DNA of 64,000 nt from an uncultured virus (IMG/VR IMGVR_UViG_3300016469_000321) (IMGVR_UViG_3300016469_000321); one strand, 5' to 3'. Shown: positions 6,201 through 59,092, counted from the stretch's first letter. The notes: a model not told the origin generated them from the letters alone. Translations and numbers: made by a program.

Positions 6201-9200
6201 GTGGATCATCGGCAGTCGGAAGGAACCCACGGACAGTCTCTTCGGGAATCTCTGGAAACTCTCGGCGGAAGGCAGCGATAAAGTCATCCGCTGTCACGCT
6301 GCTAAGCGGCCGAACGCGCTCCATTACCCCAATGGCCTCGCCGCTCTTATCAGTTATCTGCACGCCAGCGGTCACAAGTCCAGGATACTTTTCCGCGAAG
6401 GGAACCTCCTTCGCGCCCACCTTGAACACAAGCCCTGGGTAGTCCGGGTGCGTCATCGCCTTAGACGAGCCTGTCAACTTGTCGGTGAACCCGTTCTTGG
6501 AGGCGTCCCGCCTAAAAGAAGTATTCTTGATCAAGTCTTCCGCAGCAGCGGGGACGACTACAGGGACAGCGGGGGCGGAGACAGTAGGAGTCGGGGCTGC
6601 GACGGCGCGTGCCCCGGCGGCGCTCGGCCGGATCGTAGGCTCTTGGCCGCCGCGCAGATATTCCCTCAACTGCCGCTCGCGGGCTTCTACGGTTTCACCA
6701 GAAACCGGCAAACGCCGATCTCCGATGCGGATTTCCATAGGCGCAAAGCGCGTGGTCGGAGTAGGTGGCGCGATTTCTTCCTTTGGCATCGGCACTGGCG
6801 TAGAGTCGGAGACGCCCAAGCGGCGCGCTTCCTCCATTGCCTCCGCTATGGACAATTCGCCCGACTGTATGCGGGCAGTAATTTCATCCACCACACGCTG
6901 GACATCTTCGGGCGACAGCGGCGCAGTCGCGACGGCAGGGGGCGGCGTCGGCGCCTTGGCCGTAGGAGCCGCGGCAGAGGCCGCGACAGTAGGCGTCGTG
7001 GCTTCGACGCGAGGCGCGGGGGCAGCACGCTGGGCTGCCGCTCGTGCGCTGCTCTGAGCGTCGAGCAGTCGCTCGCGCCTGCGGCGGAGATCGGTAGTCG
7101 CATCCTCAAGCGCCTTCTTCGCGGCACGTTCAGCGCGAATGGCTGCTTCCTTTGCGTCGACGGCTTTCGCCAGCGCAAGGCGCGTCGCGTCCTTCTCTTT
7201 CAGGGCAAGCGCTTTCTGATGCGCGCGGTCGAACGCGATCCTCGCATCTCGCTCGGCGCCGTTCGTCAAGGCTGCGTTGCGCGCCGCCTGGCTAGCCTGC
7301 GCCTGCGCCTGCTTCAGCGTCTCTTCTGCCGCACGCAGCAGGTCTTCTGCTTCCTTGACGGGATCGACACGCGGAGCCGGCGGGATCTTGGTGACTGCCG
7401 GCGCGGGCGCCTCGCCCTTCTCTCGCGCAAGACCCTGTAGGATCTCCATGAGGTCGGGCGGCGGTCCACCTTCCTTCCCTGCAAGCGCGGGGGCCGGCGT
7501 CGGTGCCTCGGCCGCCGAAGCCGCAGGAGCCTCGGCAACCGGGGCCGGAGCAGCCTCGGCCTTCGGTGCTTCAACCGGGGGTGCCCCGGCCTTCGGCGGG
7601 CGGGCCGCACGCCTGCGCGGCGTAGGAGCCGGGGCGGGCGCCGCCTCCACGACAGCCGGAGCGGTGGGCGCCGGCGGCGCGGTCACTCGACGGAGGTTCT
7701 CGATCTCCATCTCCAACTCGCCTTGGCGGAACGCATCGCCGCTCTGGACGGCCTCCTCCAGTTCGGCTTCAAGTTGCGTGATGCGCTCCGCGTCGGTCGT
7801 TGCCACCTTCTTGGCCTCGCGCGCACGGCGCGCCTTCTCGAGCTTGATGGCGTCGAGGGCGTAGGCTTCGCCCTCCTTCACGCCGTCGGCCCGTAGCAGC
7901 GCCTCGATCTCGTCTAGTTCCTCGTCGCCTAGGCGAAGCACCATCTCGCGCAGCTTCAACTTGGCACGAGCGATAGCCGCCTTCGTCGGCGCGGCGGGGG
8001 CCGTAGGAGCGCCGCCCGCAGGCGCACCTCCGGTCGGCACCTTGCCTGCCTTCAACTCTCCGGCGAGACGCTTGAGGTCTTCCGGCGTGCCGCGACGGAT
8101 GGCGGGGAAGATCTCCTGGTACAGCGCGAACGGGCTGACCTCGCGGGACTTCGCCGCGCCCTCGATCATCTTGTCGATGATCGTGATGGTGGCGTAGGCT
8201 TCCTTGAAGTCCTGCTCCGGGAACGCCTTGCGGAGATGGTGCAGGAGCAGGAGGCCGCCCGACGTGAGCCGGATCGGCTCGCCGCTCTGCAACTTGGGGG
8301 CCACCTCGTCGAAGAGCTCCAGCGGCTCGACGCGCAGGCGGGCCGTGCTGGCGATCTCGTCGCGCAGCAACTGAGCCGCAACGCCGCGCGCGGTGTTGTT
8401 CTGCTCGATGGCCTTGAGGGCGCGGTCGAAGAGGCCGATGTCGGCCGCCTCGATCTCCTCGATGGTCTTGCCGCGCATCTCCGCGATCTTCGTCTCGGTG
8501 CGCCCGCCGATGGCCTTGTAGGCGTCCTGCCGTGCCATCTTGTAGGCGTCGGTCCCGAACTCCTTGTCGGCCTTCAGCGCGCCCTCGACGGCAGCCTTGA
8601 ACTGCTTCTGGTCGAGAAGGGCCGTCGGTGCCTGAGCGGAGATGAGGTCCGCCATGCGCGTGACCTGCGCCGCGCTGAGCTGACGCTCTGCCGGAAGGTT
8701 CTCGAACACGTCGAGGACGCGCCCGCGCACGTACTCCTTCGCGTACTGGGAAAGAGAACGACCCGACTTCCTCGCGTTGACGTACTCGGTCTTCGCCTTC
8801 TGCACGCGGTCGATGAGCCGCCGGGTGTCGTACAGCTCGGCGTAGTCGGCCTGCTCAATGCTCGCCGGACCAGTGACGGCCTTGCGGTCAGACGGGTGCA
8901 GGAACGGACGACCTGCGAAGACCTTGGCCTGCTCCGGCGCGGCGTTGGCGATCAGCGCCGCTAGATCCGTCTCGAGGATGTCGGACTGCGGCTCGGCCAA
9001 CTTCTGGAACCGGGCGACAGCCGCATCCGAAGAGTCGAGGTTCGATGCCACGTCGGGCATGGCGTTGCGAAGCGTCTTCTCCGCCGCGGCGGCCGTCTCA
9101 TAGTCTCCGGCCTTGCGCGCCCGTGCGATGGTTTCAAGAAGCGCGACGGCTTCCGGTGCGATCTTGCGCGCCTTGATCGTGCGGCTGGCAGCCTTCACGG

Positions 9201-10560
9201 CCTTCACGGCTTCTCCCGCGCCTAGAATTGCGTCAGGGAACAGGATGGAGGCGACAAGACTCGTGGCTACGACAGGCGCCTTGACATAGGCAGCCGAGTC
9301 CTTGGTGGCGTCGAGGCTGTACTCTAGTAGGTTGGCACCAGACTGAACGCCCTGCCCGACCGTCTGCCCCGACAACCCGGCCGTCACAGCGGACTGCGGG
9401 ATGTCGATAGCGCGGAACAGGACGCCCATCGGCGACTCCTGCCGGAAAATCGCCTGCCGCTTGTTGTTGAAACCGATGATCTCGATGTTCGGCTTGAGCG
9501 CATCAAGGACGCCAGGCGAGGCGCGACCCTCGCGGACCTCGACGTCACCCAGCGTGACGACGGGCGTCCACTGCCCGACCGTCTTGTAGGCGATGACCTC
9601 GTTGATGGCGCGCTTGCGGAGCGCGGCCATCTTCTCCATCGCGCCGACGTCGTTCACCTTGATGTTCGCGCGCTTGCGAAGATCCTCGACGCGCTGGTCG
9701 ATGTACTTCTGCGTGTTGCCCGTGGCGATGGCCCGACCGTAGAGGTCGTAGGCGGTCACGGCACTCGGATCCTTCTGGAGTGCCTCGACGAGGAGCTGGG
9801 CGACGGCGTAGCCGTGCTCGCCAGGCTTCGCGACCTCCGGCAACTCAGTCCACGTACCCATGACGGTGTAGCCCGCCATCGCACCGGCGGGACCGAAGCC
9901 CCTGTCCGCGCCAGAGCGCACAAGTTCGATGGTGTCCCCGGCATCTCCCGTCTGTGCCTTCTCGACATCCTGGGCGAGCTTGTTGAACGCCTGCTCACGC
10001 GCTTCAATCGGCATAAAGCCGATGACGCCGCGCTCACGCGCCGCTCTGGCGATCTCGTCGTAGGTGCGGCCCTTGTTGCGGGCCTTGACGATGGCGTCGA
10101 GGTCGACGCCCTGCGCCTGCGCGATGCGCTGGAGCTCGTCCGCGGACATGCCTAGGTCGCGCGAGGCAAGACGAATCGCAGGCTCAAGGTCTGGCAAATA
10201 AGCGTTGTCGAAGACCTTCTCATAGTCGATGACGCGCGCCACATCAGGCGGAAGCACCAACTTCGGAGGCGCGACGGCTTCGGGTGCCTTGGCCTCCTTC
10301 GGAACCTTGACTTCCTTCGGCGCCTTGATTTCTTGCGGCTTCGGCTTGACCGGCTCGACGACACGAGTTACCAGAAGGGCAGGCGGGGCTGCGCTTGGCT
10401 TTGGGAGAGCCTCCATGCCGGTCGGAGCGGCGGGCTTCGGTGCGGCGGTGGCGCGGGCCGTCGTAGGTGCAGGTACGGCAACGGGCGCCGGAGCAGGAAC
10501 GGACTGCGCCTTCTCCAGTTCTGCCATCCGAGCCATCGTCTCTTCGTAGGTGCGTGCCAT
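235..10560 (-). CDS. Giant (3441 aa) polyvalent internal virion/ejection protein with two HEXXH zincin-like domains and a kinase-like domain
   Basis: Lies after tail and internal-protein genes. Motifs THEILHH..PSEFWA, VLHEVAH..EELFAKAFEQY and VFKV..MERV..DIFRVDN..LKILDF, separated by Ala/Pro linkers. Confidence 0.8.
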   Translation of the reverse strand: MARTYEETMARMAELEKAQSVPAPAPVAVPAPTTARATAAPKPAAPTGMEALPKPSAAPPALLVTRVVEPVKPKPQEIKAPKEVKVPKEAKAPEAVAPPKLVLPPDVARVIDYEKVFDNAYLPDLEPAIRLASRDLGMSADELQRIAQAQGVDLDAIVKARNKGRTYDEIARAARERGVIGFMPIEAREQAFNKLAQDVEKAQTGDAGDTIELVRSGADRGFGPAGAMAGYTVMGTWTELPEVAKPGEHGYAVAQLLVEALQKDPSAVTAYDLYGRAIATGNTQKYIDQRVEDLRKRANIKVNDVGAMEKMAALRKRAINEVIAYKTVGQWTPVVTLGDVEVREGRASPGVLDALKPNIEIIGFNNKRQAIFRQESPMGVLFRAIDIPQSAVTAGLSGQTVGQGVQSGANLLEYSLDATKDSAAYVKAPVVATSLVASILFPDAILGAGEAVKAVKAASRTIKARKIAPEAVALLETIARARKAGDYETAAAAEKTLRNAMPDVASNLDSSDAAVARFQKLAEPQSDILETDLAALIANAAPEQAKVFAGRPFLHPSDRKAVTGPASIEQADYAELYDTRRLIDRVQKAKTEYVNARKSGRSLSQYAKEYVRGRVLDVFENLPAERQLSAAQVTRMADLISAQAPTALLDQKQFKAAVEGALKADKEFGTDAYKMARQDAYKAIGGRTETKIAEMRGKTIEEIEAADIGLFDRALKAIEQNNTARGVAAQLLRDEIASTARLRVEPLELFDEVAPKLQSGEPIRLTSGGLLLLHHLRKAFPEQDFKEAYATITIIDKMIEGAAKSREVSPFALYQEIFPAIRRGTPEDLKRLAGELKAGKVPTGGAPAGGAPTAPAAPTKAAIARAKLKLREMVLRLGDEELDEIEALLRADGVKEGEAYALDAIKLEKARRAREAKKVATTDAERITQLEAELEEAVQSGDAFRQGELEMEIENLRRVTAPPAPTAPAVVEAAPAPAPTPRRRAARPPKAGAPPVEAPKAEAAPAPVAEAPAASAAEAPTPAPALAGKEGGPPPDLMEILQGLAREKGEAPAPAVTKIPPAPRVDPVKEAEDLLRAAEETLKQAQAQASQAARNAALTNGAERDARIAFDRAHQKALALKEKDATRLALAKAVDAKEAAIRAERAAKKALEDATTDLRRRRERLLDAQSSARAAAQRAAPAPRVEATTPTVAASAAAPTAKAPTPPPAVATAPLSPEDVQRVVDEITARIQSGELSIAEAMEEARRLGVSDSTPVPMPKEEIAPPTPTTRFAPMEIRIGDRRLPVSGETVEARERQLREYLRGGQEPTIRPSAAGARAVAAPTPTVSAPAVPVVVPAAAEDLIKNTSFRRDASKNGFTDKLTGSSKAMTHPDYPGLVFKVGAKEVPFAEKYPGLVTAGVQITDKSGEAIGVMERVRPLSSVTADDFIAAFRREFPEIPEETVRGFLPTADDPLGSMGELFDYPLALSTAKTPEEVLDLMLRWVPPTTRKGVEIKPGEWRLAFDPDAVIDAITLLRNNEKFARIADATRAESALWSDIFRVDNMGIDDQGRLKILDFESQPTAFTGPITDPPKKAPPPPVDDPNIRDAVDRILQAAQRPAKVPKPEAALGAEAAPTTILRSVEPLARSAKSPWGNTPKRFVVAAESRLRKAAEDLDARRIDQVEYDIAVGDVKRDLAAQRVERAVKKSQAQLMRGADDARAKLLQAKSAGVIDEAGADLAEWLIRQSPRIADDLNIAVLTSESAKKRFGVQIGEEVAGFYEPVDRVVALIKERGSELTATHEILHHTEQMLPAALQTAVVDEWAKQIQKALRTATPEQRPALEKALTGDATALLTGVTGGTLPRSFYQYSNPSEFWAVNASRIVSGRYAAVDKGLVAKAKQWLTEFVEKVKSAFGLTSDAPIIRGLDDVLKGNGTAVSNMLSEGDIYRAAEATEAQRAYEEGKAFARAEVARLVAAGEDGVRASRIVRETLPARLAEFSDRELGIRDALSFYVSDEAKSRGLVPSRRRSAARRVKVEEHPDFIAAKDVQFKALDDLTAARRRAKEEGYDPFGYTQPKYVDDAEDAYRKAKDAAADVSSRLYARAGRSGTVEIAPDAPRALPSATEPQAPMPSGIPAAAERQTDVLKQVSPSGEVKGTVEWLEDGSSIIYLFEGADASTVLHEVAHVVRRNLLSNEDMGFIASWVQGMGVSVGHQYGEFTGDVAEIEKAEELFAKAFEQYVAEGKAPAGLEGAFAQLKDAVANVYKAVKDPVIGVELQPEVRRVFDGLFATEPTQADQSLKEAVRRGILGGPEAEVDILTVLSREAKRKGLGALDVDTLATRVNEAKANIKQILGRDPKGTDVVLKFDTKVLGKDKWTLDDLAAAQAVREKRLFPQAEARMALLRDLTGKGRGKAAVYKEDNAVDALWTALSDKETDALMTKQAKKVLRGVSTMFFGGNVLDELVGQTKLAGQPPAFRRAMDTSARIVEQSLADTVALVNDAVDMKDDTQLLRYLTGDFDVVKVSGRPILSSGHDKMGAVNRMVQRAVSAFSEEEKEALILMADAINIKDPAARGERLVALGFVMREGEKFTEADEARKATSDALYSAIGKLLYPQKQDADIGTALAAALRDAVNAPEKARPSHEFRLVETLSYIGGVTARDGELFKGDSKDMVRTLLGDIRKTYGENGEEYARRVAVQIGAFGGADQAKQFLVRMNLGVDKDTQAAFARFLNSKQVGAENIDGVERMLNTFGRDVDFVPDAALDVDFYIPRAARDRMAQVLARAQFRTGEAVGAADALATGYRYMKTRMTRGNFFIKQRYFMMNTVDHFNAMAYTEGFGVAAASTARVIAQDLVITPGVREILEVGKATGILSPAATEKLRAALQKLGDRGAARIGKMMSVSKYRIEVNPILEGVDGGFTVGGKVYRYRDIRDIAVEEGVFSSFDTRELQRAILREGQLVLAGSAAKKATVASPTIKGVVNNGLSSLESSVADIAEAWSERERLGAMVTLMEAGYDPRTAAQITIKALFDYSQSMTKLDRHWLVGMLLPFWAFQKNANRQVFNTLFSPWAAYRMMAVKRARERTSDLLTHVLYNTVADDYGVDVESMSPEMQDNYYSIIKAFEEAYGPDGPPEDHKRAMRMLLSGRAVDVEGGVYQEASAEIQRLRMVGSFADLAKFAPYTIAAPSKAARSAYMRDRTGFAVPFPRTEGVRAYNALLGDNHSYMELYWPDSTIEAGMKWHTQVAATMFLLAAKGASSTGFTDLEDGGIDEVGWMSVVKPIVDAERSPLLSPFLAEKFTRPPPKRIAEVATPEGVKQVHPMLGKMMDDLYGTTFLRLPAVVDPFVVNEDGTLPTLTPEQTAEIRRLQEQYPDVGVLKKQRYYIPGGVWATAFENSPLGELNSLLIRLEDEPLESQGRQTIQGEILIWARKYAGVDVTLTAPSQAVKREEPKKKTTTAGTQTF

Positions 10561-24228: not shown

Positions 24229-24617
24229 CACTTCCCTCGCTTGTCGGCCGCCTCCATCTGGCGGACCACCTTGTTCGCCCACGACTTGCCGGCCTCGCCG
24301 CCCCAGAGGAGGCCCGCGACGTAGCCCTTGTCTTCCTTCGGGCTCTTTCCTGCGTCGAGCTGGTAGTTGCTCGCGTGCCGGTCGAAGTACGCCTTCATCC
24401 GCCTCACGGTGGACGGGTCCATCTGAGAGCGGTTCTTCAGGTTCGCGGCGCGCTGGACACCGGAGCCGATGCCCTGAGCCGCAGCCTGCTTCGCGTCGAG
24501 GCCCGCCTTCTGCGACTTCGACTGCTCACGACGCAGCATGAGGCCACGCACGGCCGCAGCCGCCACGGACTGCGGCGGTTTGAAGTTGATGTGGCCGTAC
24601 TTGCCGTCAGCTGCCAT
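24228..24617 (-). CDS. Conserved phage head-region basic protein
   Basis: 'PPQSVAAAAVRGL..TVRRMKAYFDRH..LLWGGEAGKSWA', a motif recurrent near phage head genes. Confidence 0.7.
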   Translation of the reverse strand: MAADGKYGHINFKPPQSVAAAAVRGLMLRREQSKSQKAGLDAKQAAAQGIGSGVQRAANLKNRSQMDPSTVRRMKAYFDRHASNYQLDAGKSPKEDKGYVAGLLWGGEAGKSWANKVVRQMEAADKRGK

Positions 24618-24747
24618 AGGGGTTCATCTCGCGCTTGACGCGGCTTGCGATGAGGTTCTTGATCATCGCCCGCTTCTGATCGGCGGAGATGGCCTTGGCG
24701 GGCTTCTTGTCGGGAAGCGTCGTGTTCTGCACGTCGGTGCCGATCAC
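24607..24747 (-). CDS. Small basic hypothetical protein (46 aa)
   Basis: GTGA overlap with the upstream gene; GC3-rich. Confidence 0.5.
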   Translation of the reverse strand: MIGTDVQNTTLPDKKPAKAISADQKRAMIKNLIASRVKREMNPYGS

Positions 24748-24959
24748 TTCATCTTTCCGAGCGTGCGGGCGAGCACGAGCTGCTTGAGCAGGGTGCGCTT
24801 GGCGGCGGTGAGCTTCTTGTCGCCCTCGCCTTCCTTCTCGAGGCTGGCGATCTTGGCGGCGATCTTCCCCTTCGGGATGTTCTCGCCTTCCTTGGCGCCC
24901 ATCTTCTCGCGGAGAGCGCCCGGCTTCTTGATGGCGCCCTTGATCCAGTTGTCGGCCAT
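24744..24959 (-). CDS. Small basic phage protein (71 aa)
   Basis: GGAG RBS before ATG 24959; 'WIKGAIKKPGALR..GENIP..LARTL' motif recurrent in phages. Confidence 0.7.
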   Translation of the reverse strand: MADNWIKGAIKKPGALREKMGAKEGENIPKGKIAAKIASLEKEGEGDKKLTAAKRTLLKQLVLARTLGKMK

Positions 24960-24979
24960 GTCGCACTCCGGCCCATACC

Positions 24980-24989
24980 ATGATAGCAT
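24980..24989. promoter_or_regulatory. Bidirectional extended -10 element between divergent late operons
   Basis: ATGATAGCAT reads TGnTAnnnT on both strands within a 49-bp divergent gap. Confidence 0.55.
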
Positions 24990-25008
24990 AGGATCTGAGG
25001 AGTGTACC

Positions 25009-26658
25009 TTGGCGGCACCCGCAAGTCTACCCGGCGGCGCGAAGATCGTGCAGTTGCCGCACATGCACATGGGTAAGGTGAACGCTCTGTTCGCGACGCC
25101 GTGGGCGTTCGTCTCGATGTGCCAGATCGTCCGCGAGGACGAGTCCATCGGCTACCTCGAGCCGACGAACATCCAGATGAAGTTCCTTCAGGCGTGCGCG
25201 GACCACCGCTGGGTGCTGTGCGACAAGTTCCGCCAGGCAAAGATCACGACGCCCTCGGTCATGCTGCTCCTCCGCGACTGCATGTACCTGCAAGGCGTGA
25301 AGGGCGTGCTGATCGCCGAGCGGCAGGACACCGCCGAGGACATCTTCGAGCGCATCCTGTTCGCCTACAAGAACCTGCCCGACGACGTGAAGGTGCCGAC
25401 AGAGGCGGGCCGCAAGCCCGGCACGACGCAGATCCACTTCGTCCACGGCGGCGGCATCAAGGTGCTGACGGCTGGTGGCCGATCTCCTGCCGTCGGTCGC
25501 TCCATCGACCGCCTGCTCATCACCGAGTTCGGTGAGGCGCAGTGGCAGCGCAAGGCCGCCGCGAACATCTTCCCCGCCGTCAACAAGCGGCAGAACGCCC
25601 GCGTCATCCTTGAGTCGACGCCCGGAACGGCAGGCAGCCACCACGAGACGATGTGGCACAACGCGCTCGAAGGAAAGGGCCGCTTCCATCCCGTGTTCCT
25701 TGAGTGGTGGCTCGACCCGTCATGCCGCTCCGATCCCGCCGGCTTGAAGCCAACGGAGGTCGAGTTCGAGTACATGAAGCGGCATCCGGGGATGGATCTC
25801 CACAACCTCGCGTTCCGCCGCCTCTCGCTCCAAACGGAAATGGGTAACGACGAGCGGCTCTTCACGTCGAAGTACCCGTCCGACCCCTACGATGGCTGGC
25901 TCGGCAGCGGGCAGCCCGTGATGCCGGTCGACGTGCTGAAAGAGAGCCTGCTGCACTCCGTCGTGCCGCCGGAGCCGGTGGCGAAGGGCGCCAGCCTCTT
26001 GGAGAAGCCGGTGAAGGGGCGCGCCTACCTCGTGTGCGCGGACCCGGCGGGCTTCGGCAGCGTCGGCGACAACAGCGCCGTGACGGTCTGGGACGCCATC
26101 GAGCGCCGCGAGGTCGCCGTGTGGGAAGGCCGCGAGGATCCGGGCCGCTTCAGCGAGCGGCTCCTGAACCTCCAGCGCTTCTACAACCAGGCGCTCCTCG
26201 CGGTCGAGTCCAACGCCGCGGCGTGTATCGCCATGCTGAAGGACAAAGGCGCGCGGAACCTGCTGTGGACCGACCGCAACCACCCCGGCTGGTACGCCAC
26301 GGAGAAGCGGGTGCAGGAGGGCGAGGCCCGTCTCGTCCGCATGCTTCGTGAGCGGGAACTCACGATCAAGTCGAAGCCGCTTCTCCATCAGTTGATCAAC
26401 TACGACGGCGACCGGACGAAGCGGTCGGCGAACAGCGACGGCACGACGCACCACTTCGACCTGGCGCGCACCGCGGTCATGGCTGCGGACATCCTGTCGC
26501 GTCGTCGCTTCACGAGCGACGAAATGCCGATGCAGACGCAAGAGTTCGCGCCCTCCGACGAACCGCGCGTTACCATCGCGGACCTCGACAGGTACAAGCA
26601 TCAGGAGCGGGCCGCCGCTCGCAATCCCTTCAAGCCTATCGCGCGAGAGTGGACATGA
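25009..26658 (+). CDS. terL: Terminase large subunit
   Basis: GAGGAG then TTG start; Walker A-like KFRQAKITT, Walker B LLITE, ESTP motif, RNase H-like CADPAG..GDNSA and HFDL; directly upstream of the portal. Confidence 0.9.
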   Translation: MAAPASLPGGAKIVQLPHMHMGKVNALFATPWAFVSMCQIVREDESIGYLEPTNIQMKFLQACADHRWVLCDKFRQAKITTPSVMLLLRDCMYLQGVKGVLIAERQDTAEDIFERILFAYKNLPDDVKVPTEAGRKPGTTQIHFVHGGGIKVLTAGGRSPAVGRSIDRLLITEFGEAQWQRKAAANIFPAVNKRQNARVILESTPGTAGSHHETMWHNALEGKGRFHPVFLEWWLDPSCRSDPAGLKPTEVEFEYMKRHPGMDLHNLAFRRLSLQTEMGNDERLFTSKYPSDPYDGWLGSGQPVMPVDVLKESLLHSVVPPEPVAKGASLLEKPVKGRAYLVCADPAGFGSVGDNSAVTVWDAIERREVAVWEGREDPGRFSERLLNLQRFYNQALLAVESNAAACIAMLKDKGARNLLWTDRNHPGWYATEKRVQEGEARLVRMLRERELTIKSKPLLHQLINYDGDRTKRSANSDGTTHHFDLARTAVMAADILSRRRFTSDEMPMQTQEFAPSDEPRVTIADLDRYKHQERAAARNPFKPIAREWT

Positions 26659-28379
26659 ACCTCAGCAACCTCATCGACCGCCACCGCCGCTTCTACGAAC
26701 GCACCGAGAAGAAGAACTTCGACAAGGCGCGTCGCTACTACCGAGGCGAGTTCTACACGAGCCGGAACGATGTGAACCTGAGCGACGGCGCGATCCCCTC
26801 GTTCCTCTGCTCGAAGAACATGATCTACGCCATCGCGGACACCGCCGTGTCGGCGCTGCTCGGCCCCAACCCGAAGGTGGCCGCGAACCCGCGCAACAAG
26901 GTGAGCCAAGAGGCCATCCCGCTCGTCAACGGGCTGATGGAGTACGTGTTCGACGCGAACAACATGCGCCGTCGCGCGGCCACCGCGCTCATCGACGCGG
27001 TCCTCTGCAAGCGCGGCGTGTTCAAGACGGGCTGGGACATGAACGGCGACAAGCCGGTGGTCCGCGTCATCGAGCCGGGGTCCATCTTCTTCGACCAGAC
27101 GGTGCGCGACGTCGATGACATCCGCTACTGGCTGGAAGCCGCGGTCATCCCGTGGACCGAGTTCCAGCGCCGCGTGAAGACGGGCGCCTACAAGTCGCCG
27201 AAGATCGCGGACGTGACGCCGGACCGCTATCCGAAGTGGATCACGGACTCCTACAAGAACAGCGACACCGCGCAACTTCGAGATGCGTTCGAGTGGGTCA
27301 CGGTCTGGGAGTACTACGACCGCGAGAGCAACAAGGTCATCCACTACGTCCGCCAGGCCGACACCATCGTGTTCGAGCAGGAGCTCGACTACATCCCCTA
27401 CTCGATGTTCAGCCTGAACCAGAGTGCGGTCGACTGCCTCGGCCTGTCCGAGGTGCAGCTCGTCCTCAACCAGCAGGAGACGATCAACGACCTGCTCACG
27501 CACATGAAGCAGATCGTCTACCTGATGATCCCGCGCATCCTGTTCAACAGCGAGCTGATCACCGAGGAAGACCTCAACAAGGCGGTCGAGGCGGCGACGG
27601 GATCGTTCGTGCCCATCAGCCCGACGAACGCCGAGGGGCTCCGCACGCTCTCGACGCTGTTCTACGAGATGCCGATGCCGCAGGTTCCGGTCGGCGTCGA
27701 GAACTTCATCGCCCGGCAGGAAGGCGACGCCGCGTTCATCTCGGCCCTCGCCGAGGCGGCCCGTGGTCAGGTCGCCGGTGCGCGCACCGCCACGGAGATG
27801 GCGATCATCGACGCGCAGATGCGGACCCGCCTCGCCACGCGCGAGGGCCACATCAACACCGCGTTGCAGGACGTGGCGGAGAAGTGCTTCTACCTGGCGA
27901 AGAAGTACATGAAGGAGCCGAAACTCGTTCAGGTCAGCGGCCACGAGGGATGGAGCGAGGTCAGCCTTGCCGACATCCACGAGGTGGACGTGAACTTCTC
28001 GATGGTGTCGTACAACCCGATCCGTCAGAACCCGTCGGTCATGTCCGAGACGCTGTTGAAGCTGTTCCCGATCCTCGCGCAGGATCCGAACGTCAACAAG
28101 CGTGCGCTGCTCGAAGAGCTCGTCAACGGCGTCGGCCTCTCCGGTCGCCTCCTCATCCCGAAGGAGGAGTTGGAGCAGCAGGAGGCGATGGCGCAGCAGA
28201 TGATGATGGCGCAGATGATGGGCGCTGCGGGCGGCGCGGGTCCGGGTGCCGCGCCTCCGGGGATGCCGATGCTTCCTGCCGGCGAGGTGCCGGGTGCCGA
28301 GACGACCGAGGCCGCCACGCAGAACGTGCCGTCCGACGTCATGGCCGCGATGGGTCCGATGCCGGTCCCCGTCGCATAG
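26655..28379 (+). CDS. Portal protein
   Basis: 574 aa, ATGA-coupled to TerL; 'RTATE' motif and Q/M/P-rich tail typical of podovirus portals. Confidence 0.85.
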   Translation: MNLSNLIDRHRRFYERTEKKNFDKARRYYRGEFYTSRNDVNLSDGAIPSFLCSKNMIYAIADTAVSALLGPNPKVAANPRNKVSQEAIPLVNGLMEYVFDANNMRRRAATALIDAVLCKRGVFKTGWDMNGDKPVVRVIEPGSIFFDQTVRDVDDIRYWLEAAVIPWTEFQRRVKTGAYKSPKIADVTPDRYPKWITDSYKNSDTAQLRDAFEWVTVWEYYDRESNKVIHYVRQADTIVFEQELDYIPYSMFSLNQSAVDCLGLSEVQLVLNQQETINDLLTHMKQIVYLMIPRILFNSELITEEDLNKAVEAATGSFVPISPTNAEGLRTLSTLFYEMPMPQVPVGVENFIARQEGDAAFISALAEAARGQVAGARTATEMAIIDAQMRTRLATREGHINTALQDVAEKCFYLAKKYMKEPKLVQVSGHEGWSEVSLADIHEVDVNFSMVSYNPIRQNPSVMSETLLKLFPILAQDPNVNKRALLEELVNGVGLSGRLLIPKEELEQQEAMAQQMMMAQMMGAAGGAGPGAAPPGMPMLPAGEVPGAETTEAATQNVPSDVMAAMGPMPVPVA

Positions 28380-29175: not shown

Positions 29176-29673
29176 ATGGCCGAGATGAACAAGACTGCGC
29201 CGTCCCTTCCCGAAGGTGGCATCGTTCCGCGGCGCGACATCAAGCCGCTCGCGGACGAGATCGACGCGATCCTCAAGGAGGCCGGCCTCGCCGAGGGTGG
29301 CGCGGGCGGACCGGAGACGGGCATGGCCCCTGCGGCCTCGCGCAGCCCTGAGGGCGAGCGCAACGGCACGGGCGTCAGCATGAAGGCGGGCGAGGGCGCC
29401 ATGTCCGACGCCAGCGTCATCGCCGACGTGCTCGGCGTGTCGATGGAGAAGGCGCAGGCGCTCCTCGACGCGGCGATGGCGATGCCGAAGATGGCCGGTA
29501 AGAGCCCCGCCGAGATCGCGGACATGCTGTCCAATGACATGAACCTCCGCATGCAGCTCGAGAAGAACATGGGCGCAGGCGAAGACACGATGGCGCGGAA
29601 GGCGATGGCGGCCGAGGGCATGAAGGCTCCTCCGGCGCCCCTGCCGACCGAGCCGTCGATGGGCAAGATGTAG
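29176..29673 (+). CDS. Met/Ala-rich hypothetical head-region protein
   Basis: GAGGTG RBS; GC3-rich. Confidence 0.65.
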   Translation: MAEMNKTAPSLPEGGIVPRRDIKPLADEIDAILKEAGLAEGGAGGPETGMAPAASRSPEGERNGTGVSMKAGEGAMSDASVIADVLGVSMEKAQALLDAAMAMPKMAGKSPAEIADMLSNDMNLRMQLEKNMGAGEDTMARKAMAAEGMKAPPAPLPTEPSMGKM

Positions 29674-29686
29674 ACCAGGAGAAGCC

Positions 29687-30571
29687 ATGTTTGAAGCCGA
29701 GAACGAGAAGGAAACCGAAGCCCCCGAAGTCGTCACCGCGGAGGAGAGCATCGAGGAGATGCCCGAACCCGTCGAGGACGCCCCGTCGGTCTTCGACTGG
29801 AACGGGGAACTGGACGCGCTGACCAAGGCTGACTGGTTCAGCAAGATCGGCGACGATGGCCTCCGCAACACGCTCGTCCGCGGCTTCGAGTCGAAGTACA
29901 AGAACTTCGAGCGCGGCTTCACGAAGGCGTTCCAGGACACCGCGGCTCGCCGCAAGGAACTGGAACGCCGTGAAGCGGCCATCCGCGAGAACGAACTGCG
30001 CGTGCAGCGGTGGCTCTCCGGCAACGCCGACCCGATGGCGGAGAAGCAGGTCGAGATCGACAAGCTCAAGGCCGCTCACGACGCGGCCATTCAGACGCTG
30101 CGCGACGAGTACGCGCAGTCCGTGCAGAAGGCGCAGGAAGAGTGGACCGGCAAGTACGGCACCGCCGAGCGCGAGCGCGATGAGCTGCGCCAGCGGTTAG
30201 AGCAGTTTGAGTACGAGGCCAGGGCCGCCGAAGAGCGTCAAGTCGAAGAGGCGGTCGACGAGGTCGAGGGCTGGCTGAAGAGCGAGGCGTCCGACGTCTA
30301 CGAGAACGACGAGGCGTTCTACGCCTTCTGCGTGCTCGTGACGGGCGGCCTCGACCCGGAGGACGCCGTCGTCATGACGCGCGCCAAGTTCGGCCCGCCG
30401 CCGGCCCCGACGCCGGAACCCGTGCCTGAGGCCATGAACCTGATGAACCTCGGCCCGCAGCGTGGCGCGGGCACGGTGCAGTCGGAGAGCCGGTCCTACA
30501 AGGACATCATGGACGCGATGCGCCGTGCGGCGCAGACCGACGAGTCCGCGTTCTACTCTCCGAAGCGTTGA
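29687..30571 (+). CDS. Capsid scaffolding protein-like
   Basis: Acidic N-terminus, long coiled coil and short C-terminal helix; AGGAGA RBS. Confidence 0.65.
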   Translation: MFEAENEKETEAPEVVTAEESIEEMPEPVEDAPSVFDWNGELDALTKADWFSKIGDDGLRNTLVRGFESKYKNFERGFTKAFQDTAARRKELERREAAIRENELRVQRWLSGNADPMAEKQVEIDKLKAAHDAAIQTLRDEYAQSVQKAQEEWTGKYGTAERERDELRQRLEQFEYEARAAEERQVEEAVDEVEGWLKSEASDVYENDEAFYAFCVLVTGGLDPEDAVVMTRAKFGPPPAPTPEPVPEAMNLMNLGPQRGAGTVQSESRSYKDIMDAMRRAAQTDESAFYSPKR

Positions 30572-30595
30572 CAGGCCGGCCGGGTCGGATAGGGT
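30568..30595 (+). promoter_or_regulatory. Sigma70-type promoter
   Basis: TTGACA-N16-TAGGGT. Confidence 0.5.
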
Positions 30596-30684
30596 GACTG
30601 TGCGGGCTTCAGCCCGTGGTCATTCTCCTGATCTGTCCTGAAGGCAGCCGCCGGGCGGGCAACCTCCCGGCGGTTTCTTCTTTT
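30596..30684 (+). ncRNA. Candidate small RNA with anti-SD segment
   Basis: Lies between a promoter and an intrinsic terminator; 5' hairpin GCGGGC-TTCA-GCCCGT and linker TTCTCCTGA; no + strand ORF. Confidence 0.4.
30647..30684 (+). terminator. Intrinsic terminator
   Basis: GCCGCCGGG..CCCGGCGGT followed by TTCTTCTTTT at the convergence of two operons. Confidence 0.8.
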
Positions 30685-30883
30685 AGAACGGCGGAAAGCG
30701 CGACCGCAGGGAGACCCAAAGTTGAACGCCGCGTTCCTCGCAGTACTCGCAGAAGGCGAGGTCGCGACGATGCAGCGCCATGAGACGCCACCACACGGGC
30801 TCGTAGGGAACGACGACGCGCGCCTGGCGCGGCCCGGTCTCCAACCAGACGAGGAGCTCCTCGGTCGGATCGTCGGGGCTCAG
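30683..30883 (-). CDS. Hypothetical protein (66 aa), possible CTG start
   Basis: GC3-biased codons; CTGA overlap with the upstream stop. Confidence 0.45.
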   Translation of the reverse strand: MSPDDPTEELLVWLETGPRQARVVVPYEPVWWRLMALHRRDLAFCEYCEERGVQLWVSLRSRFPPF

Positions 30884-31062
30884 TGCTTCCCGACCTTGAC
30901 CTTGACCTTCACGACCGGCTTCGGCAGGAGGCCGGAGATGTCGGGGAGCTTCTTGCCGGCGGGGTTGATGCCCTCCTGAAGCATCGCCTCCTCGGCCGCC
31001 GTGTTCTTCATCTGCTGGAGGCGGGCGTAGTAGTCGACCTTGGCGGGATCCTGGCGCATCAC
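30880..31062 (-). CDS. Small hypothetical protein
   Basis: GTGA-coupled to the transglycosylase gene; GC3-rich. Confidence 0.55.
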   Translation of the reverse strand: MMRQDPAKVDYYARLQQMKNTAAEEAMLQEGINPAGKKLPDISGLLPKPVVKVKVKVGKH

Positions 31063-31679
31063 TTTGTCCCCTTTCGGTTCGGATCTTGGATTGCTGTCCG
31101 CGCGATGTCGAACATCGCGACGTAGTTTTTGGTTTCGAGCGGCAGGTCATTGACCGCCTGCGCGTAGTCCCGCACGACCTTGTCGCCGGCGTTGTACGCG
31201 GCGGCGATGAAGAGCGGATCCTTCGTGCCGAGTCGTTCCGACAGCTCAGCGACCACGTCGACTGCGGCGCGGATGGAGTCCCGCGGATCGTCCACGTTGG
31301 CGTTCCAGCGCTTCGCCGTCTCCGGCGTGAGCTGCATGAGGCCCGCTGCACCGGCGCCCGACTTCTTGGAGTAGTCGCCAGGCGTCATGTTGCCATGCTG
31401 CTCTACGGCCGCGAGCGCGTGGATGATGTCCGGGTCCACGCCCTTGGCCTTCGCGAGCTCCTCGATCATCCCGCGAACCGGATCTCCGTGCATCCAGGTC
31501 GCGCGGACGGCCTCGCCCATGCGCTGCTGGGCCGTGTCTCTCGGATTGTTCGGGTTCACGTAGGATCGGTACGCCGGCAGGTTCTCGTACAGCCGCTTCG
31601 TGGCGCCCTCGACGGCCTTGGATCGCTCGGCGATCAGGCGCGCGTAGTCGACGGGCTGCGCCGGCTGCGGCTCGGCCAT
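31059..31679 (-). CDS. Lytic transglycosylase (SLT domain)
   Basis: Catalytic Glu in AVEQ, GAAGLMQL, AAYNAG and ETKNYV motifs. Confidence 0.9.
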   Translation of the reverse strand: MAEPQPAQPVDYARLIAERSKAVEGATKRLYENLPAYRSYVNPNNPRDTAQQRMGEAVRATWMHGDPVRGMIEELAKAKGVDPDIIHALAAVEQHGNMTPGDYSKKSGAGAAGLMQLTPETAKRWNANVDDPRDSIRAAVDVVAELSERLGTKDPLFIAAAYNAGDKVVRDYAQAVNDLPLETKNYVAMFDIARTAIQDPNRKGTK

Positions 31680-37187: not shown

Positions 37188-37216
37188 TTGACTATACCTT
37201 ACCGCCGCACTATGAT
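37188..37216 (+). promoter_or_regulatory. Early sigma70 promoter
   Basis: TTGACT-N17-TATGAT; spacer ATACCTTACCGC shared with the promoter at 39104. Confidence 0.75.
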
Positions 37217-39103: not shown

Positions 39104-39132
39104 TTGACGATACCTTACCGCAACGCTATCAT
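39104..39132 (+). promoter_or_regulatory. Early sigma70 promoter
   Basis: TTGACG-N17-TATCAT with operator TACCG-CAA-CGCTA. Confidence 0.75.
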
Positions 39133-39158: not shown

Positions 39159-39614
39159 ATGACTAACCTTACGGACGCAATCGCGAAACGCTACGACAAC
39201 CCTGCCGCCCTGTTCCGTAGCCTCTACAAGCACACCGACTGCGGCGCGCAGGCGGGCCTCCTCGTCGATGAAGTCAGCCACGCCGGCGGCACCCGCTGGG
39301 TCTACGATGCGCGCGACCTGCCTCGCTCGTGGGAGGACATCCACGTCCTCGCCGTTAGCGTATGGTCTGCCGTAGAGGGGATCGACGCGACGACGGAGAC
39401 GCATATCGTGTACGCGAAGGACGTGACCGACGAGGACTTCTATGAGACGTTGGACGCAGCCGTCGCCGCCGTCGAAGCGGAGGCCGCCGCGCTGTGGAAC
39501 GAGACGCACGGCTGCCCGACCTGCGCGGCTCATCATGGCGTCGACCTAACCGTGGACTACGCCACCGTGTGGGGCGAGTGTCCCGACTGCGGCGGGCGCG
39601 GCCACGCTTTCTAA
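39159..39614 (+). CDS. Early protein with C-terminal zinc finger
   Basis: AGGAGA RBS; CPTC...CPDCGGRG. Confidence 0.7.
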   Translation: MTNLTDAIAKRYDNPAALFRSLYKHTDCGAQAGLLVDEVSHAGGTRWVYDARDLPRSWEDIHVLAVSVWSAVEGIDATTETHIVYAKDVTDEDFYETLDAAVAAVEAEAAALWNETHGCPTCAAHHGVDLTVDYATVWGECPDCGGRGHAF

Positions 39615-39647: not shown

Positions 39648-39878
39648 ATGACCCACGTCACCGACTACGCCAACGCCATGTCCGAGCTGTACGAGCTCGA
39701 GCCCGCGGCCTACGAGGATCAGGCCCGCCGCTACCTGCACAACGAGCCTGCCGCTGCTGCCCGGCACGCCTACAGCCTGCTCCTGAAGGCCGACGCCACC
39801 GACGACAAGCCCAACGCCAAGCGCCTCCGCAAGGCCGGCATGGCGCTCCTCGCGGCCGTCGTCGAGGGGGACGTATGA
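39648..39878 (+). CDS. Small early protein
   Basis: AGGAGA RBS; GC3-rich. Confidence 0.65.
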   Translation: MTHVTDYANAMSELYELEPAAYEDQARRYLHNEPAAAARHAYSLLLKADATDDKPNAKRLRKAGMALLAAVVEGDV

Positions 39879-46059: not shown

Positions 46060-47927
46060 CACTGCACCTCGCTCGGCGGGGCCGCGATGCCGTTGGCGAT
46101 GATGTTCGCTGCGCTCTCGCGGTTCAGCGCGCTGATCTGCCCGTTGGTGTAGCCGAGCGCCTTGAGCATGGCCCACATCGACGGGGACGCCACGAAGACC
46201 TGCATGACCGGCTTCTCCGGCAGGGGCGGCACGGTCACCTGGGGCACGCTGACAGGCGCGCTGGCCGTCACGCCGACGACCTCCGGCACGACCGTCTCGA
46301 CGACCTCCGGCGCGGCTTCCTCCACCTTGCCGAGCTCGATGACGGTCCAGCCCTTCGGCGTCTTCTTCGGCTTCGTCGGCGTGCCGATCACGACCTGCCC
46401 GTCGAACGACGACCACGAGCTCAGCACCTTGCTCAGGGTGTCCGCATCCCAGCCGCGGTCCTCCGGCATCACCAGCACGGGCCGGTCGGAGGGGACGGTG
46501 CTGCTGATCGCCATCGCCAGGGCACACGTCACCGTGGCCCACTCCGCACCCGACAGGGCGGCGCGCAACTTGCCGCCGGCGACGAGGCCGAGGCGGAAGA
46601 CCTCCTTGTCCCCGTCCACCAACTGGAGGCCGAACGTCCAGCCGTCCGGCATGAACGTCTGCACACGCGCCACGAACGCATCGGAGACGCGCTTGAGGAG
46701 ACCGGCGACGACACCCTCCAGTTCCTTCTTCATGCCCTTGTACGTCTCACTCTCGCGCGTCATCTCCGCGACGGTGTCGCGTGCGCGCTTGAGGCTCGAC
46801 CACTTGTCTGCCGTGGTGCGGAGCGCGAGGTAGCGGTCCTGCGCGGCGATGGCTTCCTTCTGCAACTCAGTCGCATCAAGGTCGAGGAGATCCTGCGGGA
46901 GCAGGGCCACGTCCTGCGCGAGTTCCGCGAGGCGGCGCTCCATCCCGGCGTAGTCCGGCGCCGGCTGCTGCGCCGGAAGGGAGTTCAGCGTGTCGGCGTA
47001 GAACGAGGCACACGCCTTGATGTGCGCCTTGCCCACAGCGCTGGAGCAGAGGGGGCACGCCTCCACGCCCTGCGACACGGCGATGCCCGCCGCCGACGCC
47101 ATGCTGCGGTAGAACTCGCGCTCAATCTCGGACGCCGGCGCGACGCGCGGGGCCGCGAGCTGCTGGCGCAACCCGGTGATCTTGGCGAGCAGCGCGGCAT
47201 GCTGCGCCTGTGCGCTCTGCGTGCGGCTGAGACGGGCCGCCGTCTCGCCGGAGATGCGCTTCGCCTCCTCGATGTCGGCCTCGGTCGGAGCCTCGTCGAG
47301 ATCCTGCGTCATGCCGGTGAGCAGCGTCTCCGCCCCGCTCGCCTCCTTGGCGGCGTCACGCTGCCGCTTGCCCGCGTACTCCAGCGTGGCGAGGAGCGCC
47401 TCGACCGGCGACTTGCCGCGGCCGACCGCCGCGCTGATGTCCTTGTACTTCGCCTGGTAGATGGTCGGCACCATCTCCTCGACGTCGGAGGCGCGCACGT
47501 CCGCCGCGGCCCACGAGAGGAACGCCTTGCGCGCCGTGGCCGGGGAGCCCTCCAGCACCTCGCGCACCGCGTGCAGCGGGAGGAACGCATCGCCCGCCGT
47601 GTCGTGCGAGGGGCGCCCGCCGTCCTTGGCGATGAAGACGTAGTCCTCGCCGCTGCTCAACTTGGCGTGGATGGAGAGGCGCTCGGCACTCGCCATGCTC
47701 ATCAGCAGCGCCGAGTCGCGCACACCGGAACGCCCGACGAGGTCATCGGCACTGCCGAGCAGCGCGAGCTGGAGGCTCTGCTGGATGCCACTTTTACCAG
47801 AGCCATTCGGCCCAATGATCAGAGTCTTTGATGTGAGCTCGACGGTGCGTGGGCGACCGTCGGCGGTCTTGAGGTTGGAGACGAGGCGCTCGACGTGCGG
47901 GCGCTGGGTGGTGGTCTTCTTTGCCAT
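46059..47927 (-). CDS. Rad50/SbcC-like ABC ATPase
   Basis: Walker A IIGPNGSGKS; coiled coils with central CPLC zinc hook; signature LSGAE; degenerate Walker B LVMPED..WD. Confidence 0.75.
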   Translation of the reverse strand: MAKKTTTQRPHVERLVSNLKTADGRPRTVELTSKTLIIGPNGSGKSGIQQSLQLALLGSADDLVGRSGVRDSALLMSMASAERLSIHAKLSSGEDYVFIAKDGGRPSHDTAGDAFLPLHAVREVLEGSPATARKAFLSWAAADVRASDVEEMVPTIYQAKYKDISAAVGRGKSPVEALLATLEYAGKRQRDAAKEASGAETLLTGMTQDLDEAPTEADIEEAKRISGETAARLSRTQSAQAQHAALLAKITGLRQQLAAPRVAPASEIEREFYRSMASAAGIAVSQGVEACPLCSSAVGKAHIKACASFYADTLNSLPAQQPAPDYAGMERRLAELAQDVALLPQDLLDLDATELQKEAIAAQDRYLALRTTADKWSSLKRARDTVAEMTRESETYKGMKKELEGVVAGLLKRVSDAFVARVQTFMPDGWTFGLQLVDGDKEVFRLGLVAGGKLRAALSGAEWATVTCALAMAISSTVPSDRPVLVMPEDRGWDADTLSKVLSSWSSFDGQVVIGTPTKPKKTPKGWTVIELGKVEEAAPEVVETVVPEVVGVTASAPVSVPQVTVPPLPEKPVMQVFVASPSMWAMLKALGYTNGQISALNRESAANIIANGIAAPPSEVQ

Positions 47928-48005
47928 GATGCACTCCGGGGAAGGCGTCCGGTGGGCGTCGTTGCCGCTGACAGGGAAGCGAACGACGCCGCACCGGACA
48001 CGAAC

Positions 48006-48034
48006 ACCTTAGTGTATCGCTACCGCCCCGTCAA
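48006..48034 (-). promoter_or_regulatory. Sigma70 promoter with operator over the -35
   Basis: TTGACG-N17-TAAGGT on the minus strand; TACCG-CCC-CGTCA. Confidence 0.7.
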
Positions 48035-50107: not shown

Positions 50108-50349
50108 GTCGTCTCCTTGCGGTGGTCGCCGCGCTCAATGGCGTCAGCCTCCGGCAGCCACGATGGATACACGTTGGCGTCATAGCGGCGAAGCCACGCC
50201 ACGACAGCCGTGCGCTCAGCCTTCACCTCGTGCTTCAGTTCCGTGATGATCATGTCGCGGAACGCCACTTGTCGCGTCAGGCGAGCCACCTGTACGCCGA
50301 GGTCGGCGATCAGCCGCGCCTCAACACTGAGCGTCTCTTCTCCGGTCAT
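50104..50349 (-). CDS. Hypothetical protein
   Basis: GGAGGT RBS; C-terminus resembles that of 48824-49162. Confidence 0.6.
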   Translation of the reverse strand: MTGEETLSVEARLIADLGVQVARLTRQVAFRDMIITELKHEVKAERTAVVAWLRRYDANVYPSWLPEADAIERGDHRKETT

Positions 50350-50451
50350 GGCCACCTCCCGACCTTGCGGGCGACGGCGGCGATGACGTCGAGCAGCCAG
50401 TGCCCGACGTCGATGATGTCTGCTTGCATGTCTTCTCCAGAAGGCACTCTT

Positions 50452-50480
50452 GGTATAGCAATGCCTTACCGGAGCGTCAA
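50452..50480 (-). promoter_or_regulatory. Sigma70-type promoter with operator over the -35
   Basis: TTGACG-N17-TATACC; TACCG-GAG-CGTCA. Confidence 0.55.
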
Positions 50481-56065: not shown

Positions 56066-57049
56066 TCAGCCGCGAGGACCGAGGGAGCAGAGGTCAAGCC
56101 CGGCACAGGCTCCATAGCGCCCATAGCACGACAGTTCGTTCTGCGCCTTCGGCCATTCCCACGGATCGGTGGTGAGGTCGAGGTGGGCGATCTGATGCTC
56201 GGCCCACCAGAGCCACTTCGCAAAGTGGGCGTCCCGGTGCGGCGTCTGCGGCACCTGGGCGCGGGCCACGCGACCCGGCTGTGTGCTGCTGATGAGGTTC
56301 AGCGTCAGCCCGCCGAAGCGGTCGCCGTACAACTGGCGACCCATGATGCGGAACGCCGCGAAGCCGCCGTCGATTGCATAGGCCGCAGCACTGCTCTCCG
56401 CATTGATAGATGCTTGGTGCTTGTGGTCCCATATGTAGTAGCGTCCCGACGCATCGCGGGTTACGAGGTCTATACGGCGCGTGAGCGTTATCGGACGCCC
56501 ATGTTCTCGGTGGTCGGGCATGTGAAGCGGCGTCACCTCGATGTCGGCACCGTCGAGGCTGCGCCACGCGCCGTCCCTTTCCTCCCCTACCCATAGGCCC
56601 CACTCCCCGCGCAGGTTGCCCAGCACGGCGACGACGGGCGCCTCCACGGCGATCACGTCACCGGGCGACTCGGGGAACTTCGCCAGGTAGGCGTGGAACA
56701 CCTTGAGCATCTGCGGCAGCAGTTCGTGGCTGCCGTACTTGTCGCACCATGCGCGGGCCGCGTCCTCCGGCTCCATGAACATGGACGGATCGTGGTGCAT
56801 CGTCTCGTCGACCATGACGCCCTGCGGCTGGGCTGCGCCCCAGATGGCGTGCAGATGGGCCTGGAGCGTATGGCCGATGGATCCCTTCGCCAGCGCCTCG
56901 ATGGGCGGGGCGATGTCGGGCGTGCGGCCCTGCCCGTCGGCCATGCGGGAGGCGCGGTTCAGGTACGCGAAGAGCTGGGGACACTTTGCGAAGTTGCCGA
57001 TGCGGCTCCAGCCGCGGCCGGACTTGCCGGCGTCGATGAGCATCTTCAC
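56066..57049 (-). CDS. Cas4/AddB-like PD-(D/E)XK exonuclease
   Basis: N-terminal CP, GSIGH, VE, RIDLV..IWDHK, three C-terminal Cys. Confidence 0.8.
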   Translation of the reverse strand: MKMLIDAGKSGRGWSRIGNFAKCPQLFAYLNRASRMADGQGRTPDIAPPIEALAKGSIGHTLQAHLHAIWGAAQPQGVMVDETMHHDPSMFMEPEDAARAWCDKYGSHELLPQMLKVFHAYLAKFPESPGDVIAVEAPVVAVLGNLRGEWGLWVGEERDGAWRSLDGADIEVTPLHMPDHREHGRPITLTRRIDLVTRDASGRYYIWDHKHQASINAESSAAAYAIDGGFAAFRIMGRQLYGDRFGGLTLNLISSTQPGRVARAQVPQTPHRDAHFAKWLWWAEHQIAHLDLTTDPWEWPKAQNELSCYGRYGACAGLDLCSLGPRG

Positions 57050-59058: not shown

Positions 59059-59092
59059 GTCGACGTGGGCCGCGATGGCCCCGGAGGAACAC

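Follow-up and report, generated by a model that had tools for sequence, protein, structure and literature searches.

In the portion of PMC12197685 drawn on here, a role is known for only a small number of the small RNAs that phages encode, and these come mostly from temperate enterobacterial phages. The same portion describes the c4 RNA of phages P1 and P7, which is about 77 nucleotides (nt) long, pairs around the ribosome binding site (RBS) of a phage mRNA, and blocks its translation; its complementary bases are thought to be located in loops (PMC12197685). At the protein level, about 30 early and middle mRNAs of phage T4 have start regions at which RegA and the ribosome compete, a control added to that by transcriptional timing, according to the part of PMC3014915 considered here. 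The subject of the present analysis is a predicted small RNA, hereafter the 30568 RNA, encoded behind a promoter that starts at position 30568 in a 64,000-nt stretch of DNA from an uncultured virus (IMG/VR IMGVR_UViG_3300016469_000321). The whole of this stretch is referred to as the window. To judge from the DNA, the interval 30568-30684 is very probably a real small-RNA gene, and the chances are about even that its RNA represses early genes of the phage by pairing with their Shine-Dalgarno (SD) sequences.

Among described RNAs, c4 is the closest analogue. The likeness lies in a phage RNA, a candidate block at the RBS and, in the 30568 RNA, a UUCUCC predicted to be exposed in a loop. The two share neither sequence nor structure: a search of Rfam 15 with 29500-31500 matched no family, the top regional match being Xoo8 (16.8 bits against a gathering value of 90) on the minus strand over the terminator only, and a search across 10 related loci gave a single match at 18.3 bits, again against 90. 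c4 serves antirepressor control in temperate phage immunity and is processed out of the same transcript as its target, whereas the 30568 RNA has its own predicted promoter, lies in the 3' region of a head gene, and has several candidate targets elsewhere, among the early and replication genes.

RegA, as presented in the part of PMC3014915 considered, is a 122-amino-acid (aa) protein with A+U-rich sites at AUG, whereas an RNA with GGAG-containing sites and two to five candidate targets is proposed here. It is the closest functional analogue by virtue of the proposed competition with the ribosome at phage start regions. In gene context, the 30568 RNA resembles DapZ and MicL, enterobacterial, Hfq-dependent small RNAs that are derived from 3' ends and have their own promoter in or at the end of a coding gene: its -35 element overlaps the stop codon of a 294-aa gene, a single terminator is common to it and the upstream mRNA, and an open seed lies ahead of that terminator. 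No homology to DapZ or MicL exists. The locus shows the traits by which 3'-end-derived small RNAs are recognized (3' end of a gene, common terminator, and promoter over the end of the open reading frame (ORF)) and, by sequence and conservation, the own promoter and rho-independent terminator of trans-encoded small RNAs. Further phage and prophage RNAs act through base-pairing, i.e., AgvB, AsxR, STnc6030, and the misc RNAs of phiR1-37; these target host small RNAs or mRNAs, or act as cis-antisense RNAs, and the portion of PMC12197685 considered attributes to none of its RNAs any pairing at SD sites in several early genes of the same phage (PMC12197685). A literature search, with subscription journals outside its coverage, returned no publication that deals with this RNA or with small RNAs from freshwater phages of high GC content. 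The 30568 RNA would be a new RNA family of a known kind of regulator.

A preliminary description of this DNA had placed the promoter TTGACA-N16-TAGGGT ahead of the RNA, and it is indeed present at 30568-30595. The pattern TTGACR-N16-18-TANNNT has five matches in the window against 0.37 expected by chance, and TTGACN-N16-18-TANNNT has seven sites in the 128 kb of both strands. Apart from the 30568 promoter, every site (four as TTGACR, six as TTGACN) stands directly upstream of a gene in the region at 34-59 kb, which is made up of small early-type genes and replication genes (primase/helicase, DNA polymerase, and helicase); the structural region at 0-30 kb contains no further site of this class. 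Because the pattern is elsewhere confined to the early and replication region, the predicted promoter at 30568 is classed with the early, host-polymerase (sigma-70-like) promoters of the phage.

The 5' hairpin, the linker carrying TTCTCCTGA, and the terminator ending at 30684, all reported earlier, were found again in the predicted fold. The RNA from 30602 to 30684 has a folding energy of -44.4 kcal/mol (z = -4.8), and none of 200 shuffled sequences was as stable. Its terminator hairpin at 30640-30680 (-29.1 kcal/mol, with TTTT next) was identified with a second hairpin scan, having been missed by a simpler terminator scan. In the ensemble, the unpaired probability is 0.69-1.0 for the UUCUCC of the 9-mer, 0.44 for the U of the UGA that completes it, and 0.01-0.02 for the GA. 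A hammerhead-like reading (CUGAnGA) of the motif before the terminator was rejected, as the window reads CUGAAGG and Rfam gives no match.

Conservation was assessed at loci anchored by homologs of the 294-aa protein (24 viral, 80 metagenome, and one genome). The stop codon was located in 55 loci, which yielded 40 distinct downstream sequences. A -35/-10 pair with 16-18-nt spacing is found at or just past the stop codon in 30 of the 40. Its -35 has the strict form TTGAC in 24 sequences, CTCGAC in four, and ATGGAC in two, the last two variants having been admitted after the sequences were inspected; the -10 elements are TAnnnN hexamers, and the spacer sequences are unrelated. The start of the -35 ranges from 1 nt ahead of the stop codon to 17 nt past it; the -35 overlaps TGA stops and lies 4-17 nt further downstream of TAA or TAG stops. 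Since its position shifts in this way and the spacers are unrelated, the promoter is conserved in its own right and not along with the stop codon. The ten sequences without the pair comprise one lineage at 84% protein identity (L013, L014, L036, L037, and L040) and five distant loci (L062-L066, at most 58% identity).

With the RNA start fixed uniformly in all relatives as the seventh base after the -10, 22 of 24 distinct RNAs have a minimum free energy fold whose pairing begins at nt 1 or 2, and the first stems vary in size and sequence to the point that they cannot be aligned between lineages. A terminator (hairpin of -20 kcal/mol or lower with a T-rich tail) is located 77-126 nt past the -10 in 25 of the 40 sequences and in the window. 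In an alignment of 27 RNAs, six of the eight consensus terminator pairs show compensatory changes, so the covariation that had been suggested as a check is borne out for the terminator. A covariance model, R1, finds exactly one copy per genome in seven genomes, including a single match in the window (30583-30677, 56.6 bits). R1 has no match in a 28.8-kb contig without head genes, nor in 31 distant loci, the latter being a weak null because the model was built from the close clade. Six loci (L028, L029, L030, L053, L055, and L058) have longer forms of the RNA (114-120 nt) followed by a second, separate hairpin. Read on the minus strand, this hairpin looks like a terminator of the converging operon, so that the two strands have separate terminators in those loci.

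The promoter-stem-terminator architecture is conserved. The joint retention of promoter, 5' stem, open linker, and terminator therefore argues for a selected promoter-to-terminator unit instead of a bare 3' untranslated region (UTR). If the locus were a plain 3' UTR, it would be the end of the terminase-portal-294-aa operon, its terminator common to the converging operon and its hexamers functionless. Such a reading would suit a region between converging genes with a strong terminator at its end, the approximately 0.4 chance matches to the promoter pattern expected per window, and the lack of a good -35 in the lineage at 84% identity. It is made improbable by a -35/-10 pair that recurs in most of the distinct sequences with unrelated spacers while shifting against the stop codon, as well as by the constant distance from the -10 to the first stem and the pairing of nearly all RNAs from their first or second nucleotide.

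The promoter may alternatively serve something else, such as the leader of a lost plus-strand gene, convergent interference with the minus-strand operon on the lysis side, or a replication primer or activating transcript. In L021, L022, L042, and L043, the unit is followed by a plus-strand gene for a Cys-rich (CxxC-type) protein and its hairpin is without a U tract; the unit also faces the 3' end of minus-strand genes. Against these roles, most lineages have a strong U-tract terminator within the distance given above, converging genes lie directly behind the unit, and in the distant loci L062 and L065 the Cys-rich gene comes immediately behind the 294-aa gene with no promoter between, which leaves such roles a slight probability.

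The preliminary description had found no plus-strand ORF in the window, and the two open frames there (30462-30641 and 30616-30783, both with GTG starts) fail the coding test based on GC content at third codon positions (GC3). No conserved ORF was detected in the RNAs of relatives, whose longest frames from a start codon span 9-37 codons and vary in length. A very small plus-strand protein, for example one made from a start codon near the transcription start, would fit the many relatives with an ATG 4-6 nt past the -10, an arrangement that would suit a leaderless mRNA. By inspection, the frames from that ATG run from 3 to about 47 codons and are unrelated in sequence, and the window has a GTG at that place followed by a tight hairpin, so that a coding function is very remote.

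Complementarity to start sites is present in the window. The complement of the 9-mer, TCAGGAGAA, occurs three times against 0.25 from shuffles: once as the antisense of the RNA itself, once at the start site of the early gene at 39159, and once at that of the helicase gene, the last two as claimed in the preliminary description. The 8-nt pairing described for the start site of the gene at 39648 was likewise recovered (CAGGAGAA). The same 8-nt match precedes the 294-aa gene, as had been stated of a "scaffold" gene; the match stands and the name is unconfirmed, since searches of PHROG and Pfam matched no family to the 294-aa protein. A further copy of CAGGAGAA is located at one non-start site. 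For the two best matches of the window linker to promoter-proximal leaders, p = 0.005 against 1000 linker shuffles and p = 0.003 against random genome segments. That the 294-aa gene is regulated through its own 3' end was rejected as unlikely, because in six relatives the start sites of this gene do not track the RNA.

Six further whole or near-whole relatives were compared for pairing. Heuristic start-site sets miss some real starts, such as the site of a 97-aa ORF in G004 and small-ORF leaders, and the output of a simple gene and start caller, which chose internal starts, was excluded from the statistics. In G002, a member of the lineage at 84% identity, the linker differs from that of the window on both sides of the UUCUCC core and the targets differ likewise: a 13-nt match, ATGGAGAACGACA, is located at a gene behind a promoter homologous to that at 39104 (with the ATACCTTACCGC spacer), and an 11-nt match, TGGAGAACGAC, at the helicase start (shuffle p = 0.001-0.002). 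Linkers from other lineages give no match above 10 nt on the start-like sites of G002. This correlated change of an RNA and two candidate targets is the strongest evidence for the proposed pairing. In G003, matches of 8 and 7 nt are found at two leaders (p = 0.03), and by inspection the helicase start could form 9 bp including one G-U pair. In G005, a conserved small-ORF leader has a 9-nt match, AGGAGAACC, at its SD (p = 0.04-0.08). The G-rich linker of G004 has a 10-nt match, ACACCCCGGA, reaching into the SD of the 97-aa ORF, and would form 12 bp, including two G-U pairs, with the small-ORF leader. Among the mid-size contigs G008-G011, with too few early leaders, the best matches are 5-8 nt.

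In another reading, the shared 9-13-nt box would be recognized as DNA by a regulatory protein of phage or host; it would stand just past several early-type promoters, inverted at the 30568 locus, and would play no part in RNA-RNA pairing. In the window and G002, three promoters of the same class have the box 9-30 bp downstream, and it has changed in concert at all three places. A protein site of this sort retains a small probability, given that the box always covers the SD and ends just short of the start codon, and that at the 30568 locus it is inverted within an open linker between two hairpins. Several imperfect matches additionally keep G-U pairs, a biased observation in that the search admitted such pairs.

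Several observations weigh against repression of phage early genes by SD pairing. As regards the RNA, part of the 9-mer is paired, its UGA being within the weak stem. The CU-rich motif is missing in L015, L018, L019, L021, L024, L044, L032, and L060, which have GU- or purine-rich linkers instead, and the purine-rich linker of L024 cannot be anti-SD. The G002 lineage has no good -35 and, by inspection, only a -10-like TACGAT, which is at the correct distance from the first stem; in the group of L021, the unit may be a 5' leader. As regards the matches, the two window targets share 12 identical bases and are not independent, the RNA has many 9-mer matches across the genome (about 45 per 50-nt stretch), and CU-rich stretches match SD sequences by default. 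Shuffle significance is confined to CU-rich linkers: the leader statistic for G004 is p of approximately 0.5, shuffles for G004 and G7c44 give p values of 0.34-1.0, the 8- and 7-nt matches of G006 are mostly non-significant (p = 0.035-0.21), and those of G7c44 are at most 6 nt and non-significant, a one-base insertion in its linker disrupting the 9-mer present in G005.

Specificity across genomes is a further point on this side. The linker of G005 reaches 10 nt on the start-like sites of the window, with eight sites of at least 9 nt, compared with 9 nt and two sites for the window's own linker, and the cross-genome matrix is non-diagonal. The signal is therefore partly a family-wide motif pair, CAGGAGAACC at start sites and GGUUCUCCUG in the RNA, and the pairing may reflect this general SD context and not lineage-specific co-evolution. 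A scan of whole linkers against six genomes with RNAduplex was rejected as uninformative; its top matches lie mostly within genes, because long imperfect duplexes swamp the signal in GC-rich genomes.

Some of these observations would equally suit a phage small RNA that is transcribed separately and acts otherwise, by pairing with host mRNAs or by occupying an RNA-binding protein or RNase as a decoy or sponge; in that case, a CU-rich linker would match phage start sites only incidentally. The architecture is kept and the linker is not (CU-, GU-, or purine-rich by lineage), the matches of G004 and G7c44 are non-significant, and the matrix is not diagonal. Such a role is unlikely in view of the two long matches of G002, which fall on the two kinds of target also matched in the window, and of the placement of the matches on SD regions 5-9 nt before start codons and not genome-wide. 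For the trans-acting repressor of the preliminary description, the conserved unit, the start-site complementarity, and the co-change in G002 hold up; the motif is not universal, the shuffles are partly negative, and the non-cognate match of the G005 linker speaks against specificity. The same division applies to an accessible seed kept complementary to target start regions, which is seen in the window, G002, G003, and G005 and is weak or non-significant in G004, G006, and G7c44.

If the 30568 RNA does repress early genes by SD pairing, the following course of events may be envisaged. Host RNA polymerase would initiate at about 30602, and the 5' stem and terminator should stabilize the RNA. Its open, CU-rich linker would present UUCUCC in a loop, followed by CCUGAAGGC. 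The loop would first contact GGAGAA of short early leaders, and the helix would then grow to 9 nt, cover the SD, and compete with the 30S subunit, resulting in less translation and perhaps lower mRNA stability. The best candidate targets would be the mRNAs of the helicase and of the gene at 39159; the gene at 39648, the 294-aa gene, and the small ORF at 50429 would be weaker ones, the second linker motif CCUGAAGGC matching TGCCTTC in the leader of that 27-codon ORF. In this way, an RNA would act as a brake on the early and replication genes. Further copies of it could arise late in infection from transcription running on out of the head operon, and in G002, with its weak promoter, this may be the chief source. 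Production of the RNA, its binding at start sites, and the repressive effect are all steps that we infer.

Coordinates of the predicted RNA, its candidate targets, and other features of the window are collected in Table 1. The gene map is based on GC3 analysis and PHROG matches.

Table 1. Predicted features of the 30568 RNA locus and related sites in the window
Feature	Position	Strand	Basis or remark
-35 hexamer TTGACA	30568-30573	+	Overlaps TGA stop (30569-30571) of 294-aa gene
-10 hexamer TAGGGT	30590-30595	+	16-nt spacer from -35
Predicted small RNA, about 83 nt	30602-30684	+	Start inferred as 7th base after -10; end at U tract
5'-terminal hairpin GCGGGC-UUCA-GCCCGU	30602-30617	+	Fold
Weak 5-bp hairpin	30618-30633	+	Fold; loop shows UUCUCC (30623-30628)
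9-mer TTCTCCTGA	30623-30631	+	Linker
Second linker motif CCUGAAGGCA	30637-30646	+	Complementary to TGCCTTC in leader of 50429 ORF; partial pairing with U tract
Intrinsic terminator	30640-30684	+	Fold and hairpin scan; extended stem 30640-30680, then U tract
Candidate target TCAGGAGAA	39144-39152	+	6 nt 5' of ATG of 151-aa early gene (39159-39614); 11 nt past -10 of promoter 39104
Candidate target TCAGGAGAA	58977-58985	-	5 nt 5' of helicase ATG (58971); downstream of promoter 59023(-)
Weaker candidate target, 8-nt match CAGGAGAA	29676-29683	+	Start site of 294-aa gene
Weaker candidate target, 8-nt match CAGGAGAA	39633-39640	+	Start site of 76-aa gene (39648-39878)
Weaker candidate target, 7-nt match TGCCTTC	50440-50446	-	GGAGAA next; leader of 27-codon ORF (50429-50346); downstream of promoter 50480(-)
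Other TTGACN-class promoters	34566, 35902, 37188, 39104	+	Directly 5' of genes
Other TTGACN-class promoters	48034, 59023	-	Directly 5' of genes
Promoters added when last base is relaxed	50480, 48258	-	Looser pattern
Large terminase	24538-26658	+	GC3, PHROG
Portal-like gene	26649-28379	+	GC3, PHROG; two small genes next
294-aa gene	29687-30571	+	GC3; end of terminase-portal block; TGA stop 30569-30571
Converging small gene, start uncertain	30683-30883	-	High GC3, open frame; stop adjoins U tract
60-aa gene	30880-31062	-	Converging block
SLT transglycosylase	31059-31679	-	Converging block
Helicase gene	57046-58971	-	PHROG; ATG at 58971

The window is a phage genome with a GC content of about 66%. 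A blastn search of 30300-30900 against 50,697 phage records matched no isolate phage. The nearest record is G001, a 70.5-kb IMG/VR contig with 98% identity over 29600-31059; across the small-RNA unit it is the same as the window save for one additional base ending the T tract, and because of this near-identity it contributes no extra evidence. Type-A relatives have, 3' of the terminator, the same C-terminal coding sequence as the converging minus-strand gene of the window. A metagenome-assembled genome labelled Myxococcaceae (G007) contains two different contigs from this phage group, C44 (70,027 bp) and C65 (28,763 bp), which is probably a binning artefact and no evidence on the host. Elsewhere in the window, one uninterrupted frame of 3441 codons (235-10560, minus strand) has the GC3 signature of coding sequence and presumably encodes a giant virion or tail-associated protein.

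Some of the other early-class promoters deserve mention in their own right. Those at 37188-37216 and 39104-39132 (plus strand) have a common spacer, ATACCTTACCGC, and this type of promoter is also found in G002, G003, G005, and G7c44. As it precedes non-homologous genes there, it behaves like a mobile promoter cassette of the variable early region. The promoter at 48034 is followed (47927-48034, minus strand) by a leader of about 78 nt with a long GC-rich inverted repeat and then by a 622-aa SMC/AAA_23-like gene; the leader may be a structured regulatory 5' UTR. At 50346-50480 (minus strand), a promoter lies at the stop of the DNA polymerase gene, and the start of its spacer, TTGACGCTCCGGTAAGG, is also present in G003, G004, G005, and G7c44. 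The hydrophobic 27-codon ORF (50429-50346) that this promoter drives ends in a TGA overlapping the ATG of the gene behind it, in what looks like translational coupling. Between 58995 and 59060, two promoters are arranged divergently and back to back, 59023(-) for the helicase gene and a plus-strand TTGACG-N17-TACATG directed towards a gene near 59075.

For the biology of these phages, the locus defines an RNA family that has no Rfam entry, occurs in a widespread uncultured freshwater phage group, and can be recognized from DNA by its promoter-stem-terminator unit. The seed-target pairs of the window and G002 offer a natural compensatory-change experiment. If the pairing is true, lytic phages could time their early genes by RNA and not by a protein repressor. 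A bolder and rather doubtful extension is that, throughout this freshwater clade, one RNA made from an early-class promoter and from the tail of the late operon acts as a global, RegA-like brake whose seed and start-site boxes co-evolve; if so, the 30568 RNA would represent an RNA-based timer of the early-to-late switch in a lytic phage.

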